A DNA stretch of 64,000 nucleotides from an uncultured bacterium (GCA_964584495.1 CAZPAH010000003.1:7148-71147); one strand, 5' to 3'. Positions 3,712 to 20,736 are shown, numbered from the stretch's first letter. Numbers and translations are program-made. The notes: generated from the letters alone by a model not told the origin.

Positions 3712-3844
3712 GGATCCTTCCTAACGTATCTCGCCGCGCGCCCGGCCGAGTAATGATTTGAATTTCCCGTATCGATGTGATAAAATCATCCTCGAAATCA
3801 AGGGACAAAATTTAACACTCCAACAATTCACAGGAGGTAGCGCC

Positions 3845-6271
3845 GTGCAAAAGGGCCGTTTCTTCTTTATTATGCTGTTATTTGTCACTTTCTTTTTTGT
3901 AGTTCCAGCCCAGGCGATCTGGGTCGAAAACGGGAAGGCTGTCTGCACGGCGGTCGAGGGTCAGGGCGATCCGCTCGTAGTCGCCGACGGCAACGGCGGT
4001 TCGATCGTGATCTGGATGGACGACAGAACGTCCTCAATTACAGAGATATACGCTCAACGCGTCGACGAATACGGCCGCGACATGTGGGCATCCGACGGTG
4101 TGCGGGTCTATACGGGTTCTTCATCCGCAATGACGTTCTATGCAACCGGTGACGGAGCTTCCGGCGCAATGATCGCGGTTCTGAGTGTCGAAGATTCCCT
4201 GTACGTGCAGCATCTCTATGCCGACGGCACAACGTGGAGCTCGCCTCAAGGCGCTCTCGTCTGCAACTTTGTTATGCCGGTGTTCGACCCTGAATATGTA
4301 TCGATAACTCAAGGCGGCGGTGGGGCGATCATCACCTGGTTCGATCCCCGTTCGTTCCCCGATTTGAACATATACGCCCAGCGCGTGGACGCCGCAGGGA
4401 ATATCAAATGGGCGGTTAATGGAGTGCCGGTCACCTCGGCCGCGAGCTTCCAGTTGTCGCCCTGCTGCGCGCAGGATCAAAGCGGAGGCGCTATCATCGC
4501 GTGGGCCGACGATCGAAGTGGCAACAGGGATATCTATGCTCAGCGGATCGATTCAACCGGCACGGTCCTCTGGACGATCGACGGGGTACCGGTATGCACC
4601 GAGACAAGCACGCAGCAGAAACCGTGTATTATTTCGGACGGAGCCGGAGGCGTTATCATCTCTTGGGAAGATTCGAGGTTGTCTTCATATGGGGATATCT
4701 TCCTGCAGAAGCTCAATTCAAGCGGCGCCGCGCAGTGGACGGCCAACGGCGTGGTCGCTACGGCCGCACTCTACAGTCAGACAGAAGCCCGGCTCGTCTC
4801 CGACGGCGATGGAGGAGTGATCCTGACATGGCTTGACGTCAGGAATACGCTTTCTAACACCGATATCTATGCCCAGCGTTTGGATGCAGCCGGCAACGTC
4901 CTCTGGGAGACCGACGGTACGGCTATCTGTACGGCCGACAATGTACAGGGATACCCCGGAATCGCTGAAGACGGCGATGGGGGCGCGGTTATCGTCTGGA
5001 ACGACAATAGGTATTTGAACGAAGACATCTACGCCCAGCGGATCGGCCCCGACGGCATCGTCATGTGGGAGGAGAATGGCGATTCGGTCTGCACCGGATT
5101 TACCGGTCAACGTTACTCCCCCACGCTCGCATATGCCGGCCGTCGCGGAGTAGTCATCGCCTGGGGGGACGGCAGGAACGGAGAGACGGATATCAATATC
5201 TACGCGCAGGGGGTCGATCTTCAGGGAAAATGGGGGTATCCGTCACCTGTCATACATTCCGTCGAGGATGTTCCCGGAGACCAGGGGGGATACATCGACC
5301 TCTTCTGGTACGCCAGCCTCTGGGAAGATCCTATCTATGACGAGATAACACATTACACGTTGTGGAGGGCCGTCGAGCCGCAGCAGGCGCTGGCCGCCAT
5401 CGAGATGGGCGCCTTGCTGGTAGAGGATCGGGCCGATCCCGTCCCGCGCGGCGACAGCCGCCTGATACGTCGGGTTGTGACCGGGTCGGCGACATACTTC
5501 TGGGAACTGGTCGGCACGCAGCAGGCGTACTGTTTTGAGGCGTACTCGATGACCATCCCGACCCTTTTCGATTCGACAGCCGTTCATCATGCATATCATT
5601 ACTTCCAGGTTCTGGCCCACAGGTCGAACCATGATTACTACTATCTGTCCGGAGTAGACAGCGCCTATTCGGTCGACAACCTCGCCCCGGGTATGCCGGT
5701 CGGGCTTGCCGGCGAGCAGGCGTACGCACCCGAGGGCCTCCAGCTTACCTGGGAACAGAACGGGGAAGACGACCTGGCCGGGTATAACGTCTACCGCGGT
5801 ACGGACGGCGGATTCGTTCCCGGACCGCTCAGCAGGCTGGCAACGACTTCCGAGCCCTTCTTGTTCGACGATGAGTGGAGATGGGACGGCGTTTACTGGT
5901 ACAAGGTAGCCGCGATAGACGTGAACGGAAACGAGGGCGGCTTCGCAACGCTCAGCCCCGGCATGATTACCGGAGAAGACATCCCCTTGCCAGAGGCGAC
6001 CTTTCTCGCGCAGAACTTCCCCAACCCGTTCAACCCGATGACTACGATAGGGTTCGGGCTGAAAGAGAAGGGGCATGTCTCGCTTACCGTATACAACGCC
6101 GCCGGGCAGCTCGTGGCAACGCTCGTCGACGAAACGATGACGGCGGGGAGCCATGAAGCCGAGTGGAACGGCCGCGCCGACGCCGACCGCATCGCTGCAA
6201 GCGGGATTTACTTCTACAGGCTTGTCGCCGATGATTTCGTGCGCACGAGGAAGATGGTGCTGCTTCGCTGA
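3845..6271 (+). CDS. Secreted repeat (beta-propeller-like) protein with T9SS-type C-terminal sorting domain
   Basis: AGGAGG Shine-Dalgarno at 3833-3838 and an in-frame GTG at 3845 give a signal peptide MQKGRFFFIMLLFVTFFFVVPAQA. There are at least 8 copies of a ~50-aa repeat ending DIYAQR(V/I/L)D...G...W, consistent with propeller blades. The C-terminus (FLAQNFPNPFNPMTTIGF...VYNAAGQLVATLVDE...SGIYFYRLVADDF) matches the Por-secretion-tail / FlgD-Ig-like CTD. Confidence 0.6.
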   Translation: MQKGRFFFIMLLFVTFFFVVPAQAIWVENGKAVCTAVEGQGDPLVVADGNGGSIVIWMDDRTSSITEIYAQRVDEYGRDMWASDGVRVYTGSSSAMTFYATGDGASGAMIAVLSVEDSLYVQHLYADGTTWSSPQGALVCNFVMPVFDPEYVSITQGGGGAIITWFDPRSFPDLNIYAQRVDAAGNIKWAVNGVPVTSAASFQLSPCCAQDQSGGAIIAWADDRSGNRDIYAQRIDSTGTVLWTIDGVPVCTETSTQQKPCIISDGAGGVIISWEDSRLSSYGDIFLQKLNSSGAAQWTANGVVATAALYSQTEARLVSDGDGGVILTWLDVRNTLSNTDIYAQRLDAAGNVLWETDGTAICTADNVQGYPGIAEDGDGGAVIVWNDNRYLNEDIYAQRIGPDGIVMWEENGDSVCTGFTGQRYSPTLAYAGRRGVVIAWGDGRNGETDINIYAQGVDLQGKWGYPSPVIHSVEDVPGDQGGYIDLFWYASLWEDPIYDEITHYTLWRAVEPQQALAAIEMGALLVEDRADPVPRGDSRLIRRVVTGSATYFWELVGTQQAYCFEAYSMTIPTLFDSTAVHHAYHYFQVLAHRSNHDYYYLSGVDSAYSVDNLAPGMPVGLAGEQAYAPEGLQLTWEQNGEDDLAGYNVYRGTDGGFVPGPLSRLATTSEPFLFDDEWRWDGVYWYKVAAIDVNGNEGGFATLSPGMITGEDIPLPEATFLAQNFPNPFNPMTTIGFGLKEKGHVSLTVYNAAGQLVATLVDETMTAGSHEAEWNGRADADRIAASGIYFYRLVADDFVRTRKMVLLR

Positions 6272-6335: not shown

Positions 6336-7592
6336 TCATTTCCCAGTTCTGACGGTGCTTCTCTCGGTGGAGAGGATGAGACCCCGGTCCGTGAACGCCG
6401 TGACCCATACCTCGTAATCGATCCCCGGCTCGAGCGATTTGAGGTCTCTCACCGGGATCGATTCTTCCGTCGCTCCGGTCCACAGGGTGTCTCGGTGGAT
6501 GCGGCTATTGGACGCCTCGCTGTAATTCACAACGTATCCCTTTATCGAATCGTTCTCGACCCTGAACTTCCATAGGATGTCGCCTCCGTCCCTGCACAGG
6601 GTCGCCCCGCCTTCCTCCTCCCACCGCAGGCATTCAAGGACCGGTTTCGGTCCCGACAAGGCCGCCCGCTCTTCTTCACCGGCCTTCGGCGGGGATTGAT
6701 CCTCGGAGAGCTTGACGAACGAGATTATCAGAACGATAAGAAGGGTTACGGCCGCGGCGAAGATTTTCATCCTGCCGTGCCCGGTCTTTTTGATCTTCAC
6801 CGCGGGGGCAGCCTCGAAGGAAGGCCATTCTCCGAAAGAGGATACAACGGCGGAGATATTGTCGGTGGAACCGTTCGTGTAGGCCCACTGGGTTATCACG
6901 TCCGCCGCCGTCTCCGGCGAATCGGATCGCGATATCAACGACAGGAGCGATCCCGAGATATCGCCGATCTTGTCCACGATAAGGCCGTCGGAGCAGAGCA
7001 TCAGGATATCGCCCTCCTTCAGGGTGAACCGGCCCCCCTGCGAAGGATAGATATCGGCTTCGTCCCCGCCGCCCGAGAGGGAGCGGGTCAGAGCGTTGCT
7101 GATCTTCTCGAGCATCGCCGCGTCGGTATCTTCGTGGAGAAAACTGTCGCGGTACTCCTGCACGAAGGAATGGTCTTTCGTGAGCTGCGTTATCTCCATG
7201 CCCGATATCAGGTATGTCCGGCTGTCGCCGATATTTCCCACTACATACTGGTCCCCGGTCCCCAGGACGATCGTGAGGGTCGTGCCCATCTTGCTCAGCT
7301 CGGGCTTATCCTTGGATTCCTCCTTGATTCGTTCCTGGGAAAGGCGCACGATGCCGCGTATCTCGTCCTGCAGCGCCTCGGGCCGGGGTGAAGAGGCGAA
7401 CGCCCTGAACCGCTCGCGGCAGATCTGGATGACAAGCCGGCTCGCCACCTCTCCGCCGCCCATTCCTCCCATGCCGTCGGCCACCGCCAGGATGAAGGCA
7501 TCGCCCTCCTGCTCGTGGCATATCCTGTCCTGGTTGTAATCTCTCCGACCCTGAAGCGATTTTCCGGCAAATTTCATTCGACCAGGTCCCAT
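6336..7592 (-). CDS. PP2C-family Ser/Thr phosphatase with a TM helix and extracytoplasmic C-terminal domain
   Basis: N-terminal LAVADGMGGMGGGEVAS plus later LCSDGL and GSTDNIS motifs identify the PP2C catalytic domain. A hydrophobic segment (IFAAAVTLLIVLIISFV) is followed by a ~130-aa C-terminal domain. The gene is divergent from the PAAR gene. Confidence 0.75.
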   Translation of the reverse strand: MGPGRMKFAGKSLQGRRDYNQDRICHEQEGDAFILAVADGMGGMGGGEVASRLVIQICRERFRAFASSPRPEALQDEIRGIVRLSQERIKEESKDKPELSKMGTTLTIVLGTGDQYVVGNIGDSRTYLISGMEITQLTKDHSFVQEYRDSFLHEDTDAAMLEKISNALTRSLSGGGDEADIYPSQGGRFTLKEGDILMLCSDGLIVDKIGDISGSLLSLISRSDSPETAADVITQWAYTNGSTDNISAVVSSFGEWPSFEAAPAVKIKKTGHGRMKIFAAAVTLLIVLIISFVKLSEDQSPPKAGEEERAALSGPKPVLECLRWEEEGGATLCRDGGDILWKFRVENDSIKGYVVNYSEASNSRIHRDTLWTGATEESIPVRDLKSLEPGIDYEVWVTAFTDRGLILSTERSTVRTGK

Positions 7593-7821: not shown

Positions 7822-8970
7822 ATGGGCAAACCAGCCGCACGAGCCACGGACACGGCCAATACATGTAACGACCCGACCGATATGCCGGTCGGCAAGGTCA
7901 TTGCGGTGGGCACTGTTTTTATAAACAAGCTGCCCGCCGCGAAGCAGGGGGACCAGGTCGTCGGGGTCGATACCCATATCATAATGATCCCGACGCCGGG
8001 CGGACCGGTTCCCACGCCCCTTCCCCACCCGTTCGCCGGGATGCTCGACAACGGTCTCTCATCCTCCGTCAAGATAATGGGCATGCCGGCGGCCACCGTG
8101 GACAGCATGGCGTCGAATATGCCCCCTCACATCCCTCAGGGAGGACCGTTCCAGAAGCCGCCCACCAACAAGGCGAAGATAATAATGGGGAGCGCCAATG
8201 TATTCATAGGCAACGGAGGCGGAGGCGGTGGGAGCGGAAAGGGCGGCGGGAAGAAGAAGGCGAAGGCCACCGCCCAGGCGGCCGACAGCGTCGAGTCGCA
8301 TACACTGAACGTCAAATTCGAGGACAAGGGGGGAAAGCCGGTCACCGGCGCGAAATATCTCGTCAAGGGGCCCGACGGCAAGGAGAGCGAGGGGTTCCTC
8401 GCCGGGCAGGTCGAGAGGCAGGGGGTCGCCGAGGGCTCTCACGAGATCAAGCTCAGCGCCGTCACGAAGGCATCCTGGTCGACCGATAGGGCGGAGGTCG
8501 GCGACAAGGTGAAGCTCCAGGTGGAAACGACCGGAGTCGAATCGGGCGAGAAGGCGGTGCTGAGGATATTCATCAAGGATTCCAATTTCGCCGATTACCT
8601 CTTCGAGACGATCGAGACCGAGGTCGGTTCCGACAAGATCGAGGAGGAATGGGAGCTCAAGGTCGACGAGAAGCTGACCGAGGCGCAGGATAAGAAGGAA
8701 GACAAGAATTACTCGAGTCCCAGCTACTACTTCGTCGTCGAGGTTGCGGGATTGAAGCAGCGCTCCGGTTCGCTGATATTCAAGGACTGGCTGGAGCTGG
8801 AGCTGGCCGACGACGAAGGCAAGCCGATCGCCAAGGCCGCATACAAGGTGTACCTGCCCGACGGATCGATAAGGAGCGGCAACCTGGACGACAACGGTTA
8901 CGCGAAGATCGAAAAGGTGCCGCCCGGAAACGTCAAGGTCGAGTACGACATCCGTTCGAGCGAAAAATAA
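7822..8970 (+). CDS. PAAR-repeat spike protein with Gly-rich linker and C-terminal tandem ~50-aa modules
   Basis: Three PAAR-type motifs fall in the first ~130 aa: PAARATD, LPAAKQGD and MPAATVDSM, with conserved GD/H spacing. A poly-Gly/Lys linker (GNGGGGGGSGKGGGKKKAKA) follows, then two copies of a module (xYxVxxPDGxxxxGxL...G...xVEY). The gene opens the co-directional T6SS block. Confidence 0.75.
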   Translation: MGKPAARATDTANTCNDPTDMPVGKVIAVGTVFINKLPAAKQGDQVVGVDTHIIMIPTPGGPVPTPLPHPFAGMLDNGLSSSVKIMGMPAATVDSMASNMPPHIPQGGPFQKPPTNKAKIIMGSANVFIGNGGGGGGSGKGGGKKKAKATAQAADSVESHTLNVKFEDKGGKPVTGAKYLVKGPDGKESEGFLAGQVERQGVAEGSHEIKLSAVTKASWSTDRAEVGDKVKLQVETTGVESGEKAVLRIFIKDSNFADYLFETIETEVGSDKIEEEWELKVDEKLTEAQDKKEDKNYSSPSYYFVVEVAGLKQRSGSLIFKDWLELELADDEGKPIAKAAYKVYLPDGSIRSGNLDDNGYAKIEKVPPGNVKVEYDIRSSEK

Positions 8971-8989
8971 TAGCCGATCGCAATAGGAT

Positions 8990-11900
8990 ATGAGTAAAAA
9001 CAAGGTATCGACCAACAGAAAGACCCGTTTTTCCTGGAGCAGGAGCAAGGTCGATATCATCAAGCTCGATCATTACTTCTTCAACAAGAACAGCGCCCTC
9101 TTCCTGCCGGTGAAGCTTCCCGATTCGGATAAGGCGGACAAGAGCGCCGCCGCGGCCATGGATATTCTCGGCATCAAGTCTCTCGCCGTCGCGTTCACGC
9201 ATTGCGAGGCGGACGGCCGCCTCCGGGTCGTTATCGCCGGTCACGCCGACTCCACAGACGACGGCGGCGTCGCCGACCGGTTCGCGCTCTCCGGGCTGAG
9301 GGCGAAATCGGTATACTACCTTCTCTCGGGGGACAGGAAGAACTGGGCGAAGACGGTTTACGAGAAGCACACGATCGAGGACTACCAGCTCGTTCTCAGG
9401 TATTTTCACCTCAACAAGGGGGTCTACTTCGGCAAGATCAAGGACCAGGTCAAGCCGTTGGACCCCGGCGAGGTGAATAACAGCTGGAATGACGCCACCG
9501 ACAAGGCGACCCGCGAATTGATCGTGGGGTTCAACAACTACGCGAAGGCGAGGAAGGTCGACTCCCTCAAGCTTTCCGTGATGATGAAAACGATCAAGGA
9601 TGATGACGCCAAGCGCTGGCCGGTTGAGCTATGGGAGGCGGTCTTCATCCTCTATGAAAACGCGATCGCCCGCACCCTGAACTTATTGAAGAAGAGCGAG
9701 CTCGAGAGCAAGCGGAAGGATATCCTGAAATTCTGCGACGACAAGAAACCGTTCGTCTCGTGCGGCGAATCTTTTCCCCTGAAGGATCTCGACGATCAGA
9801 AGAAATCGAACTACGATCCGAAGCCGGGCCGGGGCGCCGAGATAATCTTCTTCAACAAGAAATCCCTGCCGGGAAAGAAGATCTCCAAGAAGATGCGGAT
9901 CGTCTGCCCGGCCGACACAGGCAGCGTCCACCCGGCCAAGAAGTGCCCGATATTCTACAAGCACCATATGAAGTCGACGTACATCGATCACCGCAATCTC
10001 GACCTTGTGATCTATCATCTCAAGTTCGTCTACTACGACCGGGTGAAGAACGAGATCGCGCCGGTGCCGGCGGGGCTCGCTATCGAAGCGGGCCGCTGGG
10101 ACGACACCGCCAACGCGAAGGTCGCGATCGACTCGGCCACGGATTTCAACGACGGCGTCTACAGCGTCAAGGTGCCCGACGACGCGACGCGAAAGGATAT
10201 CGCCTTCTGGTTCAAGGCGGTAGATACGGTCGATCCCACGAAGAGGTGGTGGGTCTACACGGACAGCGCCGACGCCGATCCCAAGCTGGTTCTCAAGACG
10301 GATGCCGAGGTCAAGGCACTCGCCGCCGCCGAGAAAATCAAGTACTACGATCTTCCGCGTGAGTGGTCATCCATCAATTACTGGACCCGCTTCGAGAAAT
10401 ACACCGTGGGGGACGAATACAAGAAGATGATGAAAAAAAAGGGATTCAAGCCTTTCGGATCGAAGCAGCAGACCGCCGGGAAGCCCTTGATCTTCTCCCT
10501 GGACGATATCGTCCTGACCGACACCGCCGGACTCCAGAACGTGAGGGACAAGGACGGCACCGGGGCGGCGGTCGCTCTTTCGAAACATTCGAGGGTCACC
10601 CTCCTCTACCCCGACGCGGGCGATGATTTCAATATCAAGATACACAAGCCGATCGCCAAGGAGCCGTATTTCAGCGACGTAAAGGGCGGTTTCGAGGCTA
10701 ACCTTATTCATGACTACTGGGACGACAAGGATGAGAACCTTCACAGGCCGTGCCGGGTTGTAGTCTTCTGCAGCGAGTTCTACGACATATACAACAGGCG
10801 GACCGAATCGTATCCCACCTTCAGGTTCAACAAGGGGAATATTCTCGGCGCCAGGGCGGCCCGCAGGGACGACTCCCACTGCAGCGGGAAGAAATCGATC
10901 AACGGCTGGGATGCCGGCGACAAGGCGAGCGCCTACGCGGCGAAAGACGCGGGGAATTACAGGCTCCACTATCTCCATGACTGGGGCATCCATGACAACA
11001 AGCTGCACAGCGGGCTCATTATATACTGGAGCTGCCGTTATACGGTCGACGCGGGACAGGGCGGCAAAAAGATCGACAAGAAGAACTATATCGAGAAGGG
11101 GATGAAGAACGCGATGGACCGTATCGGCCTGAAGAAGTACCAGCTGGAGAAGCTGACCGGGACCGAGGATATAGTGATAAAGACATTTCCGCTCCTCGAG
11201 GCGAAGCAGGACTACAAGGTGGGATCGAACGAGATAAAGAGGGGCGGGGAGCATATATGCCTGGTAAGCCTGACCGACGACACCCATACGAGCGGGATGG
11301 GATACGATATGGCCAACTTCCGCTCGAGCGCCTACCAGGACGAGCCTGCAAGGGCCAGCGCCAACCCAGCGTTCAACAACACGCAGGATTACGATGGTCA
11401 TACCTACAACTCCCTCACAGGGGCCCACGAGATGGGCCACGCCCTCGGGCTCGACGACGAGTACATCCGCACCGCTTCCTCCGGGGTCGGGCTCGCCCAG
11501 TACGACCAGTACTATCCGGGGGTTCCCTACTCGGGCGACATGCTGACCCTGATGAACAAGAACCGCGGGACGAGGATGCATCATTTCTGGCTCTACGCGA
11601 ACTGGATCAACGACGCATCCGAGAACGGCCAGGTCCTGCACGATTTACTAAAGGGGACGAAGTTCAAGCTGGTCCTGAAGGGCGGGCCCGGCGACCTGTC
11701 GTTCGAGCTGACCCACGACGATTACCGCAATGTCTACAAGCCGGTCTACGAGGACGATGTAGATTACGGGGGCGGGACCCACGGCTACCTCATAGTGTAC
11801 AAGCTGGGGGACGGCGAGTTCGCCAATACACTTAAAGCGAACCAAAAATTCACCGGCATAATGGTCGTAAGGACAAACATCTGTGTCAAGTTCACCAACG

Positions 11901-12313
11901 ATACGTCGAACTGGACGGCTCAGGAAGCCTACGACTGGGTCCAGGCCCTCGACTCCGACCTGAAGCTGATGCTGGGAAACAAGTACTGGCTGAAGCGGGA
12001 CGATCCCGATCATCCTTTCAAGAAGGTTTATCTGTATTTCCTGCCACACTACTCGGTGGCGGACCCGGCCCCGGCCGGCACCCATTACAAGCTCGAGGTG
12101 AAGAGGAACGATAACAACGGGTTCAATCCCGACGGTGCCGATAAGTCGAAGATCGTAGTGGATGACGACGTGGAGAACAAGAAGATCATAAGGCACTTCT
12201 TCGGCAAGTTCGCCGGTCATGCGAATCTGACCAAGCCCGAGCTTGCGAAGATCAAGGATTGGATCGGTCACGCCGCCAGGGCGAACGTGGCATTTACGAT
12301 TGAGGACCTGTGA
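8990..12313 (+). CDS. Large putative T6SS effector with N-terminal OmpA-like domain and C-terminal zincin metallopeptidase motif
   Basis: Near the N-terminus, VVIAGHADSTDDGGVADRFALSGLRAKSVYYLL matches the OmpA_C-like core (GHTDxxG...LSxxRA). In the C-terminal third, TGAHEMGHALGLDDEY gives HExxHxxGxxD, the zincin pattern with Asp as third ligand seen in the snapalysin/metzincin-like group. It lies immediately downstream of the PAAR gene with a 19-bp gap. Confidence 0.6.
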   Translation: MSKNKVSTNRKTRFSWSRSKVDIIKLDHYFFNKNSALFLPVKLPDSDKADKSAAAAMDILGIKSLAVAFTHCEADGRLRVVIAGHADSTDDGGVADRFALSGLRAKSVYYLLSGDRKNWAKTVYEKHTIEDYQLVLRYFHLNKGVYFGKIKDQVKPLDPGEVNNSWNDATDKATRELIVGFNNYAKARKVDSLKLSVMMKTIKDDDAKRWPVELWEAVFILYENAIARTLNLLKKSELESKRKDILKFCDDKKPFVSCGESFPLKDLDDQKKSNYDPKPGRGAEIIFFNKKSLPGKKISKKMRIVCPADTGSVHPAKKCPIFYKHHMKSTYIDHRNLDLVIYHLKFVYYDRVKNEIAPVPAGLAIEAGRWDDTANAKVAIDSATDFNDGVYSVKVPDDATRKDIAFWFKAVDTVDPTKRWWVYTDSADADPKLVLKTDAEVKALAAAEKIKYYDLPREWSSINYWTRFEKYTVGDEYKKMMKKKGFKPFGSKQQTAGKPLIFSLDDIVLTDTAGLQNVRDKDGTGAAVALSKHSRVTLLYPDAGDDFNIKIHKPIAKEPYFSDVKGGFEANLIHDYWDDKDENLHRPCRVVVFCSEFYDIYNRRTESYPTFRFNKGNILGARAARRDDSHCSGKKSINGWDAGDKASAYAAKDAGNYRLHYLHDWGIHDNKLHSGLIIYWSCRYTVDAGQGGKKIDKKNYIEKGMKNAMDRIGLKKYQLEKLTGTEDIVIKTFPLLEAKQDYKVGSNEIKRGGEHICLVSLTDDTHTSGMGYDMANFRSSAYQDEPARASANPAFNNTQDYDGHTYNSLTGAHEMGHALGLDDEYIRTASSGVGLAQYDQYYPGVPYSGDMLTLMNKNRGTRMHHFWLYANWINDASENGQVLHDLLKGTKFKLVLKGGPGDLSFELTHDDYRNVYKPVYEDDVDYGGGTHGYLIVYKLGDGEFANTLKANQKFTGIMVVRTNICVKFTNDTSNWTAQEAYDWVQALDSDLKLMLGNKYWLKRDDPDHPFKKVYLYFLPHYSVADPAPAGTHYKLEVKRNDNNGFNPDGADKSKIVVDDDVENKKIIRHFFGKFAGHANLTKPELAKIKDWIGHAARANVAFTIEDL

Positions 12314-13518
12314 TGAGGGTGTCACCAAACAGGCCGCTGCTGCTGTGCATGATGCTGTTATCTTTGACCGCCGCCTGCCGCTCGCGGGCGGGGAACGAGC
12401 CGGGCGCTGCTCTTATCGCAGGTGAAGGAGAAATAGAAATGAATGAAGGCTACTCGACTGATTTCGCCGATTTCCGGCGGTCCTCTTTCCAGAACACTAC
12501 GGTCGATTGCGGGGGGGAGATCCTCTGGGCCTCGGACTACCGGGCCGGGGGGGCGCCGCCGCGGGCGCTCTACCTTTTCGGCGGAAAGCCGCTGGTTGTC
12601 TCGGGCGTCGGTTTCGACCTTTATTCCGGTGATGGGACCTTTCTCTGGCACCAGGACATGAACGAAGGGTCGCCGATCGGATTGACCGACAGGTTGATAT
12701 ATTTCCATGACGACAGGTTCCGTCTTTCCGCGGTGAACGCGGCCAACGAGCGCGCTATGGAGAACGGCTATTTCCCGGGCCCGATCAATCTCGACTATCC
12801 CCTTTCGCTTCTTTGGGCCGGCAAGCTCGACTACCTCTACGTCGTGCAGTTCACCGGGGGCGCCGAGGAGCTGCCGCCCAAGGTGATGGTGAAAAGGACC
12901 GTGTACGGCAAGCGGCTTGCCAAATGGACCTACGAGGTCGAGGGAAGACAGCTCCTGCCGCCCCTCTACCTGCCCGAGGTCGAGCAGGTCGTCGTTTTCG
13001 CGGATATGATCCATTTCGTCGACGCGGTCGACGGAAACGAGATATCGAAGAGAAAGTACCCGCTGGAGGGGGCCGTAAGCGCGAGCGCCGATCGCACAGG
13101 GACGGTCTATCTCTGCGGCAGATCGAAGGAGATCCTATCGCTGGCCGCTTTCGCCGCAAATGGAGATCCGCTCTGGATATGGGAGGATGAAGAGGGATTC
13201 GGCATGCCGTCGGTGCAGCCTCCCGCCATCGGAGAGGATAGCAGCATCTATATCCTCGCCGGGAACGATATAGTCGCGGTCAGGGACGGAGGAAAATCAT
13301 GGTCGTTCCGCGTCGAGGACGACCGGCCCTCCTGCTGCACCGCCTTCGCCGGCGGCAGGCTTCTGGCCGCCGCGGGCAGCCGGCTTATCGGGATCGACCT
13401 TGAAGGGAAAGAATTGTTCGACATCGAATTTGATGATACGATATTCGCGCCGCCGGTGGGCGCCGGCGACGGGACAGTCTTTCTTCTGACCGCCGGAAAG
13501 CTCTTGAGAGTGCGCTGA
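12310..13518 (+). CDS. Lipoprotein, beta-propeller (PQQ/BamB-like repeats); putative cognate immunity protein
   Basis: Its start overlaps the effector stop (ATGA at 12310-12313), indicating translational coupling. The signal peptide with lipobox LSLTAAC predicts periplasmic lipoprotein localisation. Repeated W/G-rich blade-like segments are present. Confidence 0.5.
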   Translation: MMRVSPNRPLLLCMMLLSLTAACRSRAGNEPGAALIAGEGEIEMNEGYSTDFADFRRSSFQNTTVDCGGEILWASDYRAGGAPPRALYLFGGKPLVVSGVGFDLYSGDGTFLWHQDMNEGSPIGLTDRLIYFHDDRFRLSAVNAANERAMENGYFPGPINLDYPLSLLWAGKLDYLYVVQFTGGAEELPPKVMVKRTVYGKRLAKWTYEVEGRQLLPPLYLPEVEQVVVFADMIHFVDAVDGNEISKRKYPLEGAVSASADRTGTVYLCGRSKEILSLAAFAANGDPLWIWEDEEGFGMPSVQPPAIGEDSSIYILAGNDIVAVRDGGKSWSFRVEDDRPSCCTAFAGGRLLAAAGSRLIGIDLEGKELFDIEFDDTIFAPPVGAGDGTVFLLTAGKLLRVR

Positions 13519-13561
13519 TCGCCGCGTAGGCGGCCCAAGAAAGGGGAGAAGGAAAAATCTC

Positions 13562-14008
13562 ATGAAAAAAGACGAGACGATGTTCGATATCAAGCTGCCC
13601 CAGGGCTGGGAGGATCAGACGGTGTATTTTTTCCGGGGGCCGTCGATAGACGACAGGGAGCACAAGGTCATGATGACGATCGACCGCCTCCCCCAGCAGG
13701 ACGAGATCTCGAGGTTCGCCGCCGTCAGGACGAGACCGATCGTCGAAAACCTCCAGGGAGTTGAAGTTCTCAAGGACGAGGAGACGACCCCGGCCGGGTG
13801 CTATCCCTCCTACGAGTTCGTCTACAGGTGGATCCCGGCCGACGGCATGAAGATCGTCAAGAAGCATATCTATGTTCTTCACGGCAGGTTCGGATACTGC
13901 TTCGAGGCGGAGTTCACGAAGAAATCGTACAAGATGCTGGGAGGGCAGCTTAAAAAGCTGGTGGAGAGCCTTCTGCCCGGGACATACGAGCCGGTGGACG
14001 ACCGTTAG
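13562..14008 (+). CDS. DUF1795 / Eag-like T6SS effector adaptor (chaperone) candidate
   Basis: The protein is 148 aa. Its N-terminal MFDIKLPQGWEDQTVYFFRGP matches the hallmark L-P-x-G-W-x-D-x-S/T-x-x-F of the DUF1795/DcrB-like EagR/EagT family. The size is typical for that family. Confidence 0.45.
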   Translation: MKKDETMFDIKLPQGWEDQTVYFFRGPSIDDREHKVMMTIDRLPQQDEISRFAAVRTRPIVENLQGVEVLKDEETTPAGCYPSYEFVYRWIPADGMKIVKKHIYVLHGRFGYCFEAEFTKKSYKMLGGQLKKLVESLLPGTYEPVDDR

Positions 14009-14030
14009 CAGAGCCGGCGGATGGTGCGAT

Positions 14031-14939
14031 ATGCCAGAATCGAAATTCAACAAGCAGACCGATTCAGAGGAGAAGGTCAAGCTCGACTCGGCGCTGATCT
14101 ACGCCGCGTGGAAGGACGGAGCGGCTTATACCGGCGCCCCGGCGGGGTTCGTCGTAGGAACGGTCTTCGTCGGCAACGGAGCCAAGATAGAGATAGCGGG
14201 AAAGAGCGAAGGGGGAAAATCGCTCGGGAAGATCAAGGATACGATAGACAGCAACCGTTATGCGGGCGAGTTCGAGATACCGGACGATACCGACCCGGGG
14301 GACGAGATCTATTTCACCGTGAAGATTTCGAAGAACGGGATAGACGAGGAGTCGAACCGCATACCGGTCTTCCAGGGGCCGTTGATCACCAACATGCAGT
14401 GGAGCGAGCAGGAGGCGAGGCGGGGGGACGTTCTCAAGCTGACCGCCGACGTGGAGAAGGTGGCCAACGGTACGGAGGTTCTCGTCACGATATACGAGTA
14501 CGACGAGGACGGGGCGCACGACAAGATCGCCGAGATACCGGCCGAGATAAAAGATTTCAAGCTCGAGGTGGAATGGGAGTACGAGTACCACGAGGACACA
14601 GACGAGATACCCACGACGGCGGAGATGGGAAGGTACGGGGGCTCCTACAATCCCCCCGAGTATTTCTTCACCGTGAAGTGCGGCGGGTTCGAGGCGGGGA
14701 AGGAACGGGAATCGGGGCTTTTGACCTTCAAGGACTATATAGATATCGTTCTTCGCGACGCGGCGGGCAATCCGGCCGCCGACGCGAGGTATATCGTTCA
14801 TCTTCCCGACGGATCGCAGAGGGAAGGGCAGCTCGACGCCGGCGGGCGAGCGCGGGAGGAAGGGATCGCGCCGGGGCATATCGAGGTCGAGTTTCCCGAT
14901 CTGCGACAGGTCGACCCGCTCAGCGGGGAGGAGGAGTAG
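14031..14939 (+). CDS. Hypothetical protein sharing a C-terminal ~80-aa module with the PAAR protein
   Basis: I chose the in-frame ATG at 14031 (MPESKFNK) inside ORF 13872..14939, because the upstream part overlaps the adaptor gene. The C-terminus EYFFTVKCGGFEAG...LLTFKDYIDIVLRDAAGNPAADARYIVHLPDGSQREGQLDAGG...HIEVEF aligns position-by-position with the PAAR C-terminus SYYFVVEVAGLKQRSGSLIFKDWLELELADDEGKPIAKAAYKVYLPDGSIRSGNLDDNG...VKVEY. Confidence 0.45.
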   Translation: MPESKFNKQTDSEEKVKLDSALIYAAWKDGAAYTGAPAGFVVGTVFVGNGAKIEIAGKSEGGKSLGKIKDTIDSNRYAGEFEIPDDTDPGDEIYFTVKISKNGIDEESNRIPVFQGPLITNMQWSEQEARRGDVLKLTADVEKVANGTEVLVTIYEYDEDGAHDKIAEIPAEIKDFKLEVEWEYEYHEDTDEIPTTAEMGRYGGSYNPPEYFFTVKCGGFEAGKERESGLLTFKDYIDIVLRDAAGNPAADARYIVHLPDGSQREGQLDAGGRAREEGIAPGHIEVEFPDLRQVDPLSGEEE

Positions 14940-14942: not shown

Positions 14943-16595
14943 TTGCCGGGATTCGAGTACACTATAAGAAGAAGGGACACCCTCACGGCGATCGCCCGCC
15001 GCTACCGGGTGGAGGGCGGATGGCGGGCCATATGGAACGACGAGCATAACGAGGACCTGAGAAACCGCAGGCACAGCCCGAGAAGGCTCTTCGCCGGCGA
15101 CAGGGTCTACATTCCGGGGGCGAGCGGCAACAGGGGAGCGGCGCCCAGCGGGGGGACGGCGGTATTCACCGTTCCGCCCCCGTACCAGATACGCGCCGAA
15201 GACGGATTTTACCCTCCCCCCACCGAGATACCGAGGGGGGGGACGGTCAGGCTGCGCGCCGTTCATGACGATGGAGAGGAAGGCGACTGGGCCTGGGCCA
15301 CCACGAGCACGAAGATCACCCTCTCCGATGAGATGACGGACACCGTCACGGTAACGGCCGGCAACAACGCAAGCGCCGGGGAATCGGCGGAAGTCGTGCA
15401 GGTGATGTTCACCCCGGCCGCAGAAGAATCGTTGCCGCCGGTCGAAGCCGGGATTACCGTGGTAGGAGTCGCTTTCAGGCCTTCGGCGAGCCAGGGCTAC
15501 GGCTTCGACGGGATGGGCGCCAATGCGGGCGACCGGACGCCCCGCAGAAGCACGCCCCACATATCGGTGAAGAAGAATACCAGGACGAGGGTGAGGGTGG
15601 TTGTAACGGGCGGGGTCGATTCCGGGGTCCTTCACTTCACAACCGACGACAATACGACCGCCGAACCCGTGGTCGAGGGAGCGCCTTCGGCCTCCTTCAC
15701 CCTTTTCATAGACGGCAAAGAGAAGAACAAGGCCAATACTCTGATCCACGCACGGCTGGACAGCGATACGGGCCCGATTTGCGCCAGCCTGGCGGTGAAC
15801 GTCTACAGGGAGATGTCATATACGGCCAAGGTGGCCAAGGTGTGGGACAGCACCTCCGCCTCGACGGCCCTCTCTCGTCCGAACTTCAGCGTTAACACGA
15901 CCCAGACGGCCCTCAGGGGATATTACAAGCAGGCGGTGACGACGATCAGCCTTACCGATTACAGCAGCACCGGCGGTGTCGTCGACGTCCATTTCGATCC
16001 GGGGGGGGCGGGCGCGCTCGTTCTTGAAGCGGGGCGCACCTCGGCCGGCCAGCAGGCGGTCCAGGCCGCCCTGACCGGGACCGGCAAGAAGATCGTGATC
16101 GTGAAAAAGCTTTCCTGGCTCTTCAAGCTGGGCTCCGCCGCCGCGATCGGTGATAACAGGATAACGATGGCCTCGTTCATCAACGAGACGCTCATGGGGT
16201 ACATTACGGCCGGAACGTACCAATTCGGCGGGCCGGGCAATTACGAGAATATTACGGTCACCGCGACGAACCGGACCACGAAAGTGGTGACCCTTTCGGG
16301 CACCTTGACCAAGGCGCATCCGGCGACCGAAGGGATATGGTGGCCCCTCGGCGGATTGAGCGGCAATCCCGCATATGTCCAGGAAGGGACCGATACCGAG
16401 GCGAAGGTAAACGAGGTGATCGGCCACGAGTTCGGCCATGAGCTGATGAGGCTGCTCGATCTGGATCACCGGCAGAGCCTTATGTATTTCTCCAACTCGA
16501 GAACGGGCCAGGAGATAAGGTTCAAATCATTGCAGAGGCACTATCCGGACCCGGGGGGTAACGAGAGCCAGTGGGAGCTTATCAGCCGGACCTAG
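14943..16595 (+). CDS. LysM-domain protein with C-terminal HExxH zinc-peptidase-like motif (second putative effector or wall-acting protein)
   Basis: The N-terminus YTIRRRDTLTAIARRYRVEGGW...GDRVYIPG reads as a LysM fold. Near the C-terminus EVIGHEFGHELMRLLDLDH gives HExxH plus downstream D/H. The co-directional, coding-dense context favours this frame over the 561-aa antisense ORF. Confidence 0.55.
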   Translation: MPGFEYTIRRRDTLTAIARRYRVEGGWRAIWNDEHNEDLRNRRHSPRRLFAGDRVYIPGASGNRGAAPSGGTAVFTVPPPYQIRAEDGFYPPPTEIPRGGTVRLRAVHDDGEEGDWAWATTSTKITLSDEMTDTVTVTAGNNASAGESAEVVQVMFTPAAEESLPPVEAGITVVGVAFRPSASQGYGFDGMGANAGDRTPRRSTPHISVKKNTRTRVRVVVTGGVDSGVLHFTTDDNTTAEPVVEGAPSASFTLFIDGKEKNKANTLIHARLDSDTGPICASLAVNVYREMSYTAKVAKVWDSTSASTALSRPNFSVNTTQTALRGYYKQAVTTISLTDYSSTGGVVDVHFDPGGAGALVLEAGRTSAGQQAVQAALTGTGKKIVIVKKLSWLFKLGSAAAIGDNRITMASFINETLMGYITAGTYQFGGPGNYENITVTATNRTTKVVTLSGTLTKAHPATEGIWWPLGGLSGNPAYVQEGTDTEAKVNEVIGHEFGHELMRLLDLDHRQSLMYFSNSRTGQEIRFKSLQRHYPDPGGNESQWELISRT

Positions 16596-17617
16596 GCGCG
16601 CGTGGGCGTAAGGGCCGCGCGGGCACTAAAATAAATATCGCGGTTATAATATTGCTGACGGCCGTTTTTTCGGCGGTCGCCGCCGGCAGCTGCGGATGCC
16701 GGTCGGGGAAGGAGACTGACGAGTTGACGAAAATACAGGAACTGATCGAGAGTTTCAGATCGGGCGTCGAGTTCGACGGAGATGTCGAGCCCTATGTCAC
16801 GGGCGGCAAGCCGGATATGGAGGCGGTAGGCCGGTTCCGGACGGCGCTCGAAAGGGAGGATGAGCCGGTCCGGGAGCAGGTATGCCGTCTGCTCGGAGCG
16901 CTAGGCAAGAGGGTCGATCCCCTCTACGAGAAAGGGGGCGGAATGATCCGCGACAGGACGATTGTCGGCATCCTAGTGAACGACGGCCTGTCGAGGAAGG
17001 GCCCGGCGAGGGATATCTGCCTCGATCTTCTCCAGTATGCCGTGCCGGGGCATGTGCTGAAGGATTTCGGCAGGCAGATGGCCGACAATCTCAAGATGTA
17101 CCCAGACGCGACGCTGCTCCTGGTGATAGCCAAGGCGAAGGCCCCAGAGGCGAAGGATGCTGTCGATTCGCTTATGAAGATCCCAGGCTGGGCCGGGGAG
17201 ACGGAGACGAGGATCGCCGCGGCGGCCCTCGGGGACCGGGAGATAGAGCGATCGTTCATAGAACGTTTTCGCGCCGCTCAGGAACCGGCGGAAAAGGCCG
17301 AACTTGCGAAGCTGCTTGGCCTTATCGGGACGGAATCGGCCCTCAGGGAAGTGGCCGCCGCGATGCGGTCCGACATGATCATAGAGATGTCCGGGGTCTC
17401 CTCGCGATCGATCAGGATATATTTCATCGAGGCCCTCTCGTACAATTTTCCAGAGGAAACCTTTCTGTACGATAACGCGGTCAACAGCGACGAGGATTAC
17501 GCGAAGGTGGAAAAATTCTGCGAGGAGAGGTTCGGCGTGAAATGGAAAAAAGAGCGCCCCCCGTTCCTATGGATACAGGGGTATCCGACCGAGCCGCAAC
17601 CCGATATTACCCCTTGA
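16571..17617 (+). CDS. HEAT/ARM-like repeat lipoprotein (possible immunity or accessory protein)
   Basis: A basic n-region is followed by the hydrophobic INIAVIILLTAVFSAVAAGSCGC with a lipobox Cys. The remainder is predicted alpha-helical with repeats. It overlaps the upstream stop by 25 nt. Confidence 0.45.
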   Translation: MGAYQPDLGARGRKGRAGTKINIAVIILLTAVFSAVAAGSCGCRSGKETDELTKIQELIESFRSGVEFDGDVEPYVTGGKPDMEAVGRFRTALEREDEPVREQVCRLLGALGKRVDPLYEKGGGMIRDRTIVGILVNDGLSRKGPARDICLDLLQYAVPGHVLKDFGRQMADNLKMYPDATLLLVIAKAKAPEAKDAVDSLMKIPGWAGETETRIAAAALGDREIERSFIERFRAAQEPAEKAELAKLLGLIGTESALREVAAAMRSDMIIEMSGVSSRSIRIYFIEALSYNFPEETFLYDNAVNSDEDYAKVEKFCEERFGVKWKKERPPFLWIQGYPTEPQPDITP

Positions 17618-17730: not shown

Positions 17731-20250
17731 ATGGATATTACCAGCTATTCGCATGATTCCAGAACGGTTATCAAGAACGCCCAGGAGATAGCCTCTTCCT
17801 ACAGGCATGCCGAGATCGACGTGGAGCACCTGCTGATGGCGATCGTCCGCCACGAAGGGACCGAGGTGGAATCGATCCTTCACCAGATGGGTAAATCCCC
17901 GTCGTTCGTCGAGTCGATGGTCGATATCTACCTGAAGGATCAGCCCGCTAAGTCGACGGGAAGGGAGAAGGTGCCGATCTCACCGGCGGTCCAGACGGTG
18001 CTGAACAACGCCCTCGACGAGAAGGCGAAGCTCTACGATCCGCTGGTGGAGCCGGAGCATATCTTCATATCGATATTCGATCCCCGCTCGGCCCTCTCGG
18101 GCTACGTGAGGGACAAGGTAGAGATAACGAGGGAAGATATATACCGCGCCATAGCGGAGATGAAGGCGGTCGAGGAGATAGCCTCCACTCCCGGCGAGAA
18201 GGGCGAAAAGGCGGCGGCCGCGGGGGAATCACCGGAGAAGATCGCGAGGACGCTCAGGTACACCAACGACATGACCGATCAGGCGGCCGGCGGAAAATTC
18301 GATCCTATGATCGGACGCGAGGACGAGCTGCAGCAGACGATCCAGATTCTGCTTAGGCGGCGCAAGAACTCGCCAGTGCTTGTCGGCGGCGCAGGAGTCG
18401 GAAAATCGGCCATAGTGGAAGGGTTCGCCCAGGCCGTCATCGACAAGAGGGTGCCGAAGGTGCTCCAGGATGTCAAGGTGCTGGAAGTCGATATGGGCGC
18501 GATCATAGCCGGCGCCAAGTACAAGGGGGAGTTCGAGGAACGCTTCAAGGCGCTGATCGGCGATGTCGTCAAGGGGGCCGGCAAGGTCATCCTCTTTATC
18601 GACGAGATTCACACGATATGCGGAGCCGGTTCCGGCGGCGGGATGGACGCTGCGAACCTTCTCAAGCCGGCCCTCGCCCGCGGGCAGCTCAGACTGATAG
18701 GAGCCACTACGGAGGAAGAGTACACGAAGTACCTGGAAAAGGACAAGGCGCTCGTGCGCCGTTTTGAGAAGGTTAAGATCGAGCAGCCGGTTTTCGAGGA
18801 GGCCGTCACGATCGTCAGGGGCGTGGCGGACAGGTACGAGACGCATCACAAGGTCAAGTTCGACGAGGAGGCCAAGATCACCTCGGTGAAGCTGGCGCAG
18901 AGGTACCTCTCCGAGAGGAACCTTCCCGATATAGCCCTCGATATAATCGACGAGGCCGCGTCGGAATTTTCCGTCAAGCAGGAGCTTGCCGGCGAGAAGA
19001 TAAAGTCGCTCACCAAGCATTTCGAGGATATCGATAAATTGATCGGCGGAAAGGGCGAGGGGCTCGGCGAGACGTACGACGCTCTCACGAAGGACCTCGA
19101 CACGCTCCAGAAGTACTGGGGGCACAGGCTCGACAGGGAATACGAGCAGAGCCTCTCCTTCGACAAGATAAAGAAGGAGAATCTACCCGATATCATGGCG
19201 AAGAAGAAGGAGCTGTTCGAAGATTTGAAGGGTGTCGTGGAGAAGCTGGAGCCGGTCATATTCGACAGCGACATCGGCGCCGTGATCGCCCGGAGAACGG
19301 GGATCCCCGTGTCGAAGATGATGACGGCCGAGAAGGACCGGCTGATCAACATGGAGGAGTTCCTGGGCCGCAAGATCATCGGCCAGGAAAACGCGATCAA
19401 GGCGGTATGCAACGCCGTCAGGAAGTCGAGGGCCGGGCTTAAGCTGCCGTACCGCCCCGTGGGCTCGTTTCTGTTTCTCGGGCCGACGGGAACCGGCAAG
19501 ACCTATCTTCCGAAGCTCTTGGCCGACTTCCTCTTCGACGATAAGAACGCGATCGTCCGGATGGATATGTCGGAATTCATGGAGACTCATTCGGTCGCCA
19601 AGATGATCGGTGCGCCGCCGGGGTATGTCGGGTACGAGGCGGGGGGGCTTCTGACCGAGGCTGTTCGCAAGAAGCCTTTTTCGATAGTGCTGCTGGACGA
19701 GGTGGAGAAGGCGCATCCGGACGTATTCAATATTCTGCTTCAGCTCCTCGACGACGGCCGCTTGACCGACGGACAGGGACGCACCGTCGATTTCTCCAAC
19801 ACGATAGTGGTATTGACTTCGAACTATGCCGCTGATAAGATTCTCGAAGCAGATCGCGAGGGCAGGGAACCGGACATGGAAGAGATACGCTCGTTCCTGT
19901 TCGGGAAATTCAGGCCGGAGCTCCTGAACCGTCTCAACGAGATCATAGTTTTTCATCCATTTTCGCAGGAGCAGGTCGAGAAGATCGCCGCGCTCGAGTT
20001 CAAGAATCTCTGCGCCCTTCTGGAGGATCTCAACATCGAGGCGTCCCTCTCCGACGAGGCGACCAAGAAGCTCGCCAGGGAGGGGTACACGGTGGAGCTG
20101 GGTGCAAGGCCGATCCAGAGGATAATCGAGAAGCAGATTATCAACAAGCTGTCGGTGGAGATCATCACGGGCGAGGTAAAGCCGGGCGACGAGGTGAAGA
20201 TCGACATCAAGGACGATGATTACGTGTTTACCGTGGTAGAAAATAAATAG
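17731..20250 (+). CDS. clpV: T6SS AAA+ ATPase ClpV (TssH)
   Basis: Clp N-domain, then two AAA modules: Walker [10 protein letters not shown] in D1 and GPTGTGKT in D2, a sensor/arginine-finger region, and the ClpB-like [13 protein letters not shown] motif. Its position directly upstream of tssB, tssC and hcp supports the call. AAGGAG Shine-Dalgarno is present. Confidence 0.85.
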
Positions 20251-20277
20251 GATGAAGCGTTTAAAAAGGAGGAATTG

Positions 20278-20718
20278 ATGGCAAAGTTCATACTGGGAGC
20301 CACGGAACGGGTCAAGAAAGACGACTCGATTCCGGTCGAGCTTCTTCCATCGAACAAGTTGTTGTACGTGGCCAAGCTCAACAACGATGAGGACAGCGAA
20401 CCGGACCCGGTGCGTTGCAACAATCTGAAGGAGGTTTTCGATAAATTCCGTCCTTCATTCGAATGCGAGCTGGAATCGGCCGAAGGAGAGCCTATCAACG
20501 CGGATTTCCATATAAAGGCGATGAAGGACTTCACGCCGAAGGAGCTTATCGAGAACAACGATTACCTTTCGACGACCTACTACAGCAAGGAGATCCTTGC
20601 CGATCTCGACAAGCAGCTCAAGAAGAATAACGCACTAAAGAAGACTTTGAAGGACAAGGACAAGAAGGAAGCTCTTCTTAAGGCGGCGCAGTATTACATA
20701 GAACTTCTAACCGAATAG
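20278..20718 (+). CDS. tssB: T6SS contractile sheath small subunit TssB
   Basis: A ~147-aa acidic/lysine-rich protein lying between clpV and the large sheath gene, preceded by an AAGGAGG Shine-Dalgarno. Size and position match TssB. Sequence-level identity with known TssB was not verified by eye. Confidence 0.55.
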   Translation: MAKFILGATERVKKDDSIPVELLPSNKLLYVAKLNNDEDSEPDPVRCNNLKEVFDKFRPSFECELESAEGEPINADFHIKAMKDFTPKELIENNDYLSTTYYSKEILADLDKQLKKNNALKKTLKDKDKKEALLKAAQYYIELLTE

Positions 20719-20736
20719 AAGAGTGAGGTGATATAA

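Follow-up and report, generated by a model that had tools for sequence, protein, structure and literature searches.

A PAAR-less paralogue of the spike-tip extension as a putative second cargo carrier in a type VI secretion cluster of uncultivated bacteria

Introduction

Type VI secretion system (T6SS) biology has been built almost wholly on Proteobacteria and a few Bacteroides strains, and classes of extension on its PAAR proteins were reportedly laid out by Shneider et al. in 2013. Here we analyse a stretch of 64,000 nucleotides from an uncultured bacterium (GCA_964584495.1, CAZPAH010000003.1:7148-71147), hereafter the window, with positions counted from its first letter. Between 7.8 and 29 kb its plus strand carries a T6SS cluster, in which we compared the PAAR protein (positions 7822-8970) with the product of a separate open reading frame (ORF, 14031-14939).

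Transthyretin (TTR) C-terminal extensions on PAAR and VgrG proteins are known to recruit cargo effectors, as described for VgrG1-Tle1 of enteroaggregative Escherichia coli (EAEC) and for VgrG2a/2b of Pseudomonas aeruginosa (PMC7376260). In Bacteroides fragilis, BtpeA, BtaeB and BtapC form a cargo complex on the VgrG spike (Protein Data Bank (PDB) entries 9jg8 and 9jdh; PMC13402684). Among the N-terminal loading domains MIX, FIX and RIX, the RIX proteins are secreted and serve as adaptors or tethers of cargo that other genes encode (PMC10435454). In the window, the product of the ORF is probably a paralogue, lacking the PAAR domain, of the spike tip's C-terminal extension. We consider, with moderate confidence, that the two-domain unit common to both proteins (A-B) handles cargo and that the ORF product, named N-A-B after its domains, would serve as a second cargo port.

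Shared domains of the PAAR protein and the downstream ORF

A preliminary description of the sequence had noted by eye a C-terminal module of ~80 aa common to the PAAR protein and the ORF. The two segments that it named have 35 identities in 78 positions and a Smith-Waterman score of 169, against 23.6 +/- 4.3 for 2000 shuffles (z=34). The homology survives compositional correction, as composition-adjusted BLASTP of the whole proteins aligned residues 118-379 of the PAAR protein with residues 38-293 of the ORF product over 276 columns at 31% identity (E=4e-31). Alignment of the family profiles gave a probability of 100% (E=5.4e-41) over 170 columns, in which ORF residues 118-295 correspond to residues 213-382 of the PAAR protein. 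The common module thus stands, but its length does not: through the profile and per-domain alignments the architectures PAAR-linker-B-A-B and N-A-B were resolved, and the unit held in common is A + B, of ~170-180 aa, of which the ~80 aa noted by eye are just the final part. The domain limits in both proteins were taken from hhalign:

PAAR protein, residues 1-132 (7822-8217): PAAR domain
PAAR protein, residues 133-158 (8218-8295): glycine-rich disordered linker
PAAR protein, residues 159-212 (8296-8457): B1
PAAR protein, residues 213-320 (8458-8781): A
PAAR protein, residues 321-378 (8782-8955): B2
N-A-B protein, residues 1-19 (14031-14087): conserved unstructured N-tail
N-A-B protein, residues 20-116 (14088-14378): N domain
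N-A-B protein, residues 117-234 (14379-14732): A
N-A-B protein, residues 235-292 (14733-14906): B

Domain by domain, hhalign matched A of the ORF (117-234) to A of the PAAR protein (213-320) at E=6.6e-26 and B of the ORF (235-292) to B2 (321-378) at E=9e-32. An extra upstream copy of a ~50-aa sub-module, which had also been proposed for the PAAR protein, was recovered as B1 (157-212 in these alignments), with E=1.4e-11 to B2 (321-378) and E=4.4e-10 to B of the ORF, and BLASTP returned a second high-scoring segment pair for this copy (E=4e-5). Taken alone, a 36-aa fragment of B1 was not significant against the PAAR protein's own C-terminus (z=1.6). The PAAR domain of 7822-8970 is a member of its family (40.4 bits vs the PF05488 cut-off of 27). 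The ORF had no PAAR match in Pfam, and hhalign gave no alignment of its N domain to the PAAR domain (E=0.09). The ORF had first been read by eye as A-A-B, a reading that was rejected as N is not a detectable sequence repeat of A (hhalign E=0.14 and 0.001); N and A are both immunoglobulin (Ig)/macroglobulin (MG)-like in the structural model.

The AlphaFold2 models of both proteins are all-beta. That of the ORF has a predicted local distance difference test score (pLDDT) of 85.4 and a predicted template modelling score (pTM) of 0.73, and that of the PAAR protein has a pLDDT of 79.6, with residues 133-158 below 50. A is a macroglobulin/Ig-like sandwich, as found by structural superposition on MG domains, and B is probably a short domain of the transthyretin clan, to which the CarboxypepD_reg and prealbumin-like models belong. 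The B domains of the window reached the CarboxypepD_reg (PF13620) and SpaA (PF17802) models at E=0.0025-0.007, with 17-18 bits vs cut-offs of 23-32, and B spans only about two-thirds of these models. The same two families are present as precomputed annotations on orthologues, and relatives rise above the threshold (P0361, residues 780-829, E=1e-15; P0241, E=5e-28). PDB sequence searches with the ORF, the PAAR protein and both cargo proteins described below gave nothing useful, and the sole PDB match of the profile A1 was a Bap repeat, through the B domain (E=0.003). The objection that the module is a ubiquitous beta-sandwich bears on the ~50-aa B sub-module alone, which is a generic fold of the transthyretin/CarboxypepD_reg clan, and not to the A-B combination, which like the N-A-B family is specific.

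These data bear on whether the similarity is simply what remains of a tandem duplication of the PAAR gene, with the ORF as a decaying PAAR-less copy or a generic beta-sandwich functionally unconnected with the spike. The genes are on one strand and 5 kb from each other, B falls in the ubiquitous CarboxypepD_reg/prealbumin clan with 4192 library representatives at E<=1e-3, and fold searches return generic macroglobulin and Ig domains, as such an origin would predict. However, the A-B similarity between the two families lies far above fold-level noise, the ORF has an N domain of its own that is not PAAR-derived, and A-B recurs specifically on proteins of injection machines (Phage_GPD hub-like, Dit-like and RHS). 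Besides, the ORF family is intact, constant in length and 50-72% identical across several phyla, which signifies strong purifying selection. Such a remnant is therefore very improbable and is largely refuted already by the conservation data.

Conservation and distribution of the N-A-B family

Placement of the ORF start at 14031 (MPESKF...) is in line with where 25 orthologues begin. Among 875 relatives, the best 120 are about 300 aa long and 55-72% identical, have no Pfam domain and are almost all unnamed, and the 302-aa protein itself matched no Pfam or NCBIfam family. A genome scan recovered relatives from Krumholzibacteriota, Zixibacteria, Ignavibacteria, Latescibacterota and GN15, and the species-level genomes that carry them number at least 156. 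When 1.84 billion protein representatives were searched with HMMER, 4192 were found at E<=1e-3, many of which carry repeated B units only, and 241 at E<=1e-30. The PAAR-B-A-B orthologues form a family of ~380 aa. As far as our literature search reached, the A-B unit and the N-A-B family are undescribed, and both are unannotated.

Synteny was determined by tblastn of the window proteins on 80 retrieved loci. In about 50 of them the same order recurs, namely PAAR-B-A-B, a first variable slot, an Eag-like gene, N-A-B, a second variable slot and then ClpV-TssB-TssC-Hcp-VgrG. Far from being a variable accessory gene, the ORF ranks with the best-conserved ones of the cluster (50-72% identical between phyla): mean pairwise identity is 0.49-0.60 for the N-A-B domains and 0.57 for the PAAR domain, compared with 0.43 for VgrG, 0.41 for the Eag-like protein and 0.75 for TssC. 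The N-tail, the N domain and the A-B linker (WEYEYHEDTDEIP...YNPPEYFF) are near-invariant. Two loci hold very divergent systems (L074:8225-19234 and L077:8704-18969), with TssC 26-27%, ClpV 38% and VgrG 22% identical to those of the window; both keep the PAAR-B-A-B and N-A-B genes, here adjoining and divergently oriented, together with two Hcp genes.

Such conservation raises the possibility that N-A-B is a structural part without which the spike or baseplate of this T6SS lineage cannot be built, such as a collar or a second tip subunit pairing with the PAAR extension, with the variable genes merely inserted at a permissive site and cargo loading not its main task. Its core-like conservation exceeds that of VgrG and of the Eag-like protein, it occurs as a single copy at a fixed position in nearly every cluster including the two divergent ones, and its near-invariant parts would suit surfaces that touch conserved partners. 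In B. fragilis, deletion of analogous effector genes abolished T6SS function (PMC13402684). This explanation appears rather doubtful, though, in view of three sets of data given below: orphan N-A-B genes with downstream pairs of their own far from T6SS genes, the frequent position of N-A-B at the head of toxin or enzyme fusions, which is unexpected for a purely structural part, and the co-variation of its B domain with cargo. The two roles are also compatible, as a carrier can itself be required for assembly, and the high conservation of N-A-B indicates that it may be.

Further features were seen among the relatives. Many N-A-B and PAAR-B-A-B relatives end in long, highly acidic low-complexity tails, in which D, E, S, T and Q abound over 30-120 residues (P0003, P0017, P0047, P0099 and P0108; L024, L081, L068 and L057), which sometimes serve as the linker to a fused toxin; N-A-B of the window ends shortly, in ...SGEEE. 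In P0241 (2313 aa) and P0250 (921 aa), 7-9 stretches match the N-A-B profile amid many CarboxypepD_reg-type repeats; the unit multiplied in these long arrays is B, and in P0241 A-B as well. One PAAR-B-A-B orthologue, P0217, carries the NCBI label of a Methanosarcinaceae archaeon metagenome-assembled genome (MAG), most likely a binning error because all other sources are bacterial MAGs of the Fibrobacteres-Chlorobi-Bacteroidetes (FCB) group.

Gene layout, variable slots and putative cargo

The genes of the cluster, all on the plus strand, are the following:

7822-8970, +: spike-tip protein PAAR-B-A-B, 382 aa (PAAR_motif of Pfam with 40.4 bits and E=3.4e-10, over the cut-off)
8990-12313, +: slot-1 cargo, 1107 aa, HExxH motif AHEMGHALGLDDEY; putative metallopeptidase effector that would be loaded by PAAR-B-A-B
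12310-13518, +: slot-1 partner, 402-aa predicted lipoprotein with beta-propeller repeats (PQQ_2 sub-threshold); putative periplasmic immunity protein
13562-14008, +: Eag-like (DUF1795/DcrB family) chaperone/adaptor homologue, 148 aa (Pfam DcrB E=2.1e-5)
14031-14939, +: N-A-B protein, putative PAAR-less carrier, 302 aa
14943-16595, +: slot-2 cargo, 550 aa, N-terminal LysM-like domain and HExxH (IGHEFGHELM); putative cell-wall-directed effector that would be loaded by N-A-B
16571-17617, +: slot-2 partner, 348-aa HEAT-repeat protein with signal peptide or lipobox (HEAT_2); putative periplasmic immunity protein
17731-28996, +: T6SS core block giving the context (Pfam and NCBIfam matches), made up of the genes below
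17731-20250, +: ClpV
20275-20718, +: TssB
20737-22164, +: TssC
22209-22613, +: Hcp
22733-24520, +: VgrG
24529-24903, +: TssE, matching the GPW_gp25 gene at the equivalent position in locus L001
24854-26572, +: TssF-like
26569-27498, +: TssG
27548-28996, +: TssK

Both slots are highly variable across the loci, ranging over 0.1-5.7 kb (slot 1) and 0.2-5.6 kb (slot 2) and holding together ~59 unrelated protein clusters, four of which occur in either slot. Slot 1 is empty in L049 and slot 2 in L046 and L056. A typical slot encodes a large protein (~280-1370 aa) followed by a smaller one (~190-470 aa), and a minority of the smaller proteins have a lipobox-like N-terminus. The genes between PAAR and ClpV were also considered as a lineage-specific membrane complex like TssN-R, and this was rejected: in many loci the two slots differ in content or hold nothing, and the proteins are devoid of transmembrane (TM) segments.

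The 1107-aa protein of slot 1 had no Pfam, NCBIfam or PDB match. Its family is present in 26 of 47 slot-1 loci at 22-35% identity, with HExxH kept in 23 of the 26. It co-occurs with the propeller family of the 402-aa partner (cluster 1, 23 loci), which matches Pfam PQQ_2 below threshold (E=7e-6) and whose N-terminus, ...LLSLTAAC, has a lipobox. In slot 2 the 550-aa protein has a partial match to Pfam LysM (E=0.0013), and its family occupies 9 of 53 slot-2 loci and retains HExxH in all nine. The accompanying HEAT family (cluster 7) is represented in the window by the 348-aa partner (Pfam HEAT_2 E=1e-4), which has a hydrophobic segment at residues 17-44 followed by AAGSC and probably starts downstream of 16571. 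The lipoprotein-type signal peptides on both partner genes would fit periplasmic immunity against envelope-directed effectors. Slot-2 proteins with a Pfam match include Amidase_2 with PG_binding_1, zinc phospholipase C, protein-arginine deiminase (PAD), Metallophos, LysM and pentapeptide repeats.

Otherwise unrelated slot-2 families have a LysM-like domain of ~70 aa in common, 30-45% identical, at 14943-15170 of the window and at L014:1785-3224, L026:10971-11852 and L041:9186-11603. It is N-terminal in some slot-2 proteins and lies at about residues 95-175 in others.

Fusions of the putative carriers and orphan modules

Apart from the slots, toxin-type domains are found fused directly to both putative carriers. 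N-A-B is followed by an AHH nuclease in L063 (Pfam E=5.9e-13), by an 876-aa extension in L050 and by an acidic linker with a C-terminal domain in P0032, and many library representatives have a full N-A-B at residues 1-295 and then 300-1000 further residues. Ten of these long representatives were scanned, of which five carry PG_binding_1, OmpA, metallo-beta-lactamase (Lactamase_B) or Amidohydro_2 and five have no Pfam domain. PAAR-B-A-B is fused to Tlde1 in L043 (E=8.3e-10), to HExxH-containing domains in P0228 and P0235, to PG_binding_1 in P0221 and to an extra A-B unit in P0223. Pfam assigned no family to the C-terminal domains of P0032 and P0228, where the AHH-like and HExxH motifs were seen by eye only. 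As cargo is fused directly to either carrier in other genomes, the carriers themselves would have to leave the cell with the spike.

Orphan modules lie far from T6SS genes. In L070, N-A-B is followed by genes for a 440-aa protein and a 331-aa lipoprotein, and L071 has two N-A-B modules; these resemble the auxiliary effector modules known for VgrG and PAAR genes. With ~59 slot families, toxin-type fusions and orphan modules, N-A-B agrees with our working definition of a polymorphic effector carrier, in which one conserved module precedes, within its own gene or the following one, many unrelated toxin-type domains that have small partner genes beside them.

The A-B pair is also present at the C-terminus of Phage_GPD hub-like, Dit-like phage-tail and RHS proteins. 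The RHS-repeat protein P0379 (1511 aa) has its A-B unit at the extreme C-terminus (residues 1333-1508), after the RHS core domain, where it occupies the position normally taken by the toxin domain. P0376 aligns weakly to the gp27-like part of VgrG (E=0.001), and BLASTP did not support P0310 as a VgrG fusion.

Co-variation of putative carrier domains with cargo

In an exploratory analysis, the identity of each domain was regressed on that of the N-terminal domain of the same protein. Where two loci had a slot-2 cargo family in common, the identity of their N-A-B B domains was higher by ~0.1, and eight of ten families had a positive residual. In a matched identity band, B averaged 0.554 between loci with the same slot-2 cargo vs 0.481 otherwise, and the A domain of N-A-B did not differ (0.604 vs 0.601). 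For the PAAR protein, A and B2 co-vary with slot-1 cargo (five of five families), and B1 does not.

A crude mirror-tree comparison of 30 loci, with TssC controlled for, gave its top partial correlation for the Eag-like protein against the PAAR domain (r=0.70); domain A of N-A-B came next, paired either with the Eag-like protein (0.47) or with the PAAR domain (0.45). For the Eag-like protein against the N-A-B domains, the partial r was 0.23-0.47.

The last values would suit an account in which N-A-B is itself a secreted passenger acting on target cells, for instance by binding surfaces or peptidoglycan, and the downstream effectors are loaded otherwise, for example by the Eag-like protein or by VgrG. 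Co-variation of the Eag-like gene is strongest with the PAAR domain and weaker with N-A-B, macroglobulin/Ig-like and transthyretin-clan domains are typical binding modules, and many family members end in the long acidic tails mentioned above. Nonetheless, the 302-aa form has no enzymatic or toxin motif, no dedicated immunity gene adjoins it beyond those paired with the larger slot proteins, and N-A-B with variable toxins at its C-terminus or downstream is the signature of a delivery module. We therefore consider a passenger role for N-A-B unlikely.

The Eag-like gene

The gene before the ORF had been described as DUF1795/Eag-like, and both profile comparisons point the same way. Its product matches Pfam DcrB (PF08786) at E=2.1e-5 with 25.1 bits, just under the cut-off of 27.2 bits. 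A profile of 33 Eag-like orthologues found EagT6/PA0094 as its sole PDB matches (E=0.0013), with agreement in length and N-terminal motif. In nearly all loci the gene lies directly upstream of that for N-A-B. Known Eag clients have N-terminal TM helices beside a prePAAR motif. The PAAR protein begins with a motif of the AARxxD type, and no hydrophobic segment (Kyte-Doolittle average over 19 residues, KD19 >= 1.6) was detected in the PAAR, N-A-B, 1107-aa or 550-aa proteins, so that no client of this kind was found among these four.

Neighbouring genes

The closest relatives of the window are Krumholzibacteriota MAGs. Its TssC and Hcp match Pfam PF17541 and PF17642, models built on Bacteroidetes-type systems. 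ClpV is a single 839-aa gene in the window and in Krumholzibacteriota-like loci. Elsewhere (L001:12724-15281 and most Zixibacteria/Ignavibacteria loci) it is split into two adjoining genes, of ~487 aa with the first AAA domain and of ~365 aa with the second, the tblastn query pieces 1-468 and ~475-839 lying in different frames.

Three genes after TssK (29013-32709, +) had no T6SS family match. Of their products, that of 309 aa has a TM segment at the C-terminus, that of 736 aa has one in its centre besides a weak Double-GTPase-2 match, and that of 169 aa has one at the N-terminus. As no homologue of TssJ/L/M or TssN-R was recognised anywhere, these genes are candidates for a membrane complex. 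Directly upstream of the PAAR gene is that of a PP2C phosphatase bearing an fn3 domain (6336-7592, -), and the far end of the cluster has a Ser/Thr kinase gene whose product carries a PEGA domain (37831-39306, -). The pair recalls the PpkA/PppA threonine-phosphorylation control of T6SS, and a PP2C homologue also lies within the retrieved stretch of L003, L007, L008 and L078. Beside the kinase gene are two adjoining genes with CsgG-like domains, one fused to TPR repeats (35361-37777, -). An 837-aa protein (3758-6271, +) ends in a type IX secretion system (T9SS) sorting domain (Por_Secre_tail/FlgD_ig/CHU_C), which indicates that the organism also has a T9SS and is consistent with the FCB group.

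Discussion

The preliminary description had suggested docking, cargo recruitment or co-secretion for the common module. Judged by comparative genomics, this is partly supported, and cargo recruitment is the reading best backed by the variable slots, the toxin fusions, the orphan modules and the co-variation. We infer from the sequences that PAAR-B-A-B may cap VgrG and carry the effector encoded just downstream, the 1107-aa HExxH protein with its lipoprotein immunity partner. N-A-B would ride on the same spike complex and carry the second effector encoded next downstream, the 550-aa LysM/HExxH protein with its HEAT lipoprotein partner. Attachment of N-A-B would be through its own conserved N-tail, N domain, A domain and A-B linker, possibly helped by the Eag-like protein, which may stabilise or bridge the complex. 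Spike attachment, secretion, binding of cargo by A-B, and toxicity and immunity of the slot genes are thus all predicted roles.

Several observations weigh against cargo carriage by N-A-B. It is more conserved than the usual adaptors and present as one copy per cluster, which fits an obligatory structural subunit too, and B by itself is of a ubiquitous clan. In most slot proteins no toxin domain could be recognised, most slot-2 proteins have no Pfam match, and the presence of the 1107-aa/propeller pair at 26 of 47 loci would be uncommonly broad if its members were effector and immunity protein. Among the cargo proteins no common N-terminal loading motif was seen, apart from the LysM-like domain of a few slot-2 families. 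The co-variation could also arise without binding, if the carrier's 3' end and the cargo cassette recombined as one piece; the locus pairs behind it are phylogenetically non-independent, and one cargo family gives 36 of the 59 same-cargo pairs. Moreover, there was no sequence signal to the BtaeB entries (9jdh/9jg8), and BtaeB lay outside the Foldseek top 50.

A bolder form of the carrier reading, which we put forward tentatively as possible though less than likely, is that PAAR-B-A-B, the Eag-like protein and N-A-B make up an obligatory three-part, dual-port spike tip of an undescribed T6SS lineage in uncultivated FCB phyla (Krumholzibacteriota, Zixibacteria, Ignavibacteria and Latescibacterota). 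N-A-B would then dock beside the PAAR extension via the duplicated A-B, by heterotypic A-B/A-B pairing or by Eag-like bridging. If so, each firing would deliver two different effectors and none would occur without both carriers; the tip would be an evolutionarily independent counterpart of the BtpeA-BtaeB-BtapC co-secretion complex of B. fragilis, and N-A-B would be of general use for tracing new toxin families in these phyla, by the hundreds.

The clusters belong to abundant sediment and soil phyla that have no cultured T6SS model, all the organisms being uncultivated MAGs, and our literature search found no paper on T6SS of these phyla. The ~290-aa N-A-B module offers a practical handle for finding effectors, as many of the 241 representatives at E<=1e-30 have long uncharacterised C-terminal regions. 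The two-slot layout is also a natural system for studying how one spike bears two cargos, a question opened by the B. fragilis co-secretion complex.

Compared with known systems, the TTR extensions come close. In both, a spike component closes with a small beta-sandwich, here probably of the transthyretin clan, and the gene next downstream is for the cognate effector, here a putative one. Here, however, the extension is a di-domain of macroglobulin-like A and B, arranged as B-A-B on the PAAR protein, A-B is also borne by a free-standing, PAAR-less and highly conserved protein, and the system is T6SS-iii-like and of uncultivated FCB phyla instead of Proteobacteria. The likeness of N-A-B to BtaeB is a fold-level analogy only. 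The Eag chaperones of prePAAR effectors (EagT6/PA0094, EagR) have a probable counterpart in the 148-aa Eag-like protein encoded near the PAAR gene, but their known clients have N-terminal TM helices, which are absent from the PAAR protein, N-A-B and cargo of the window. With MIX, FIX and RIX, N-A-B has in common a conserved N-terminal module followed by diverse C-terminal toxins or separately encoded cargo, and its use as an effector-finding marker. The genomic logic alone is alike, since sequence and fold are unrelated and N-A-B did not match the family-specific motifs or models; at ~290 aa it consists of three beta-sandwich domains, is paralogous to the PAAR tip extension and holds a fixed place in the main cluster. 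Spike binding modules, N-terminal loading domains and secreted adaptors have already established the principle, which N-A-B would extend.

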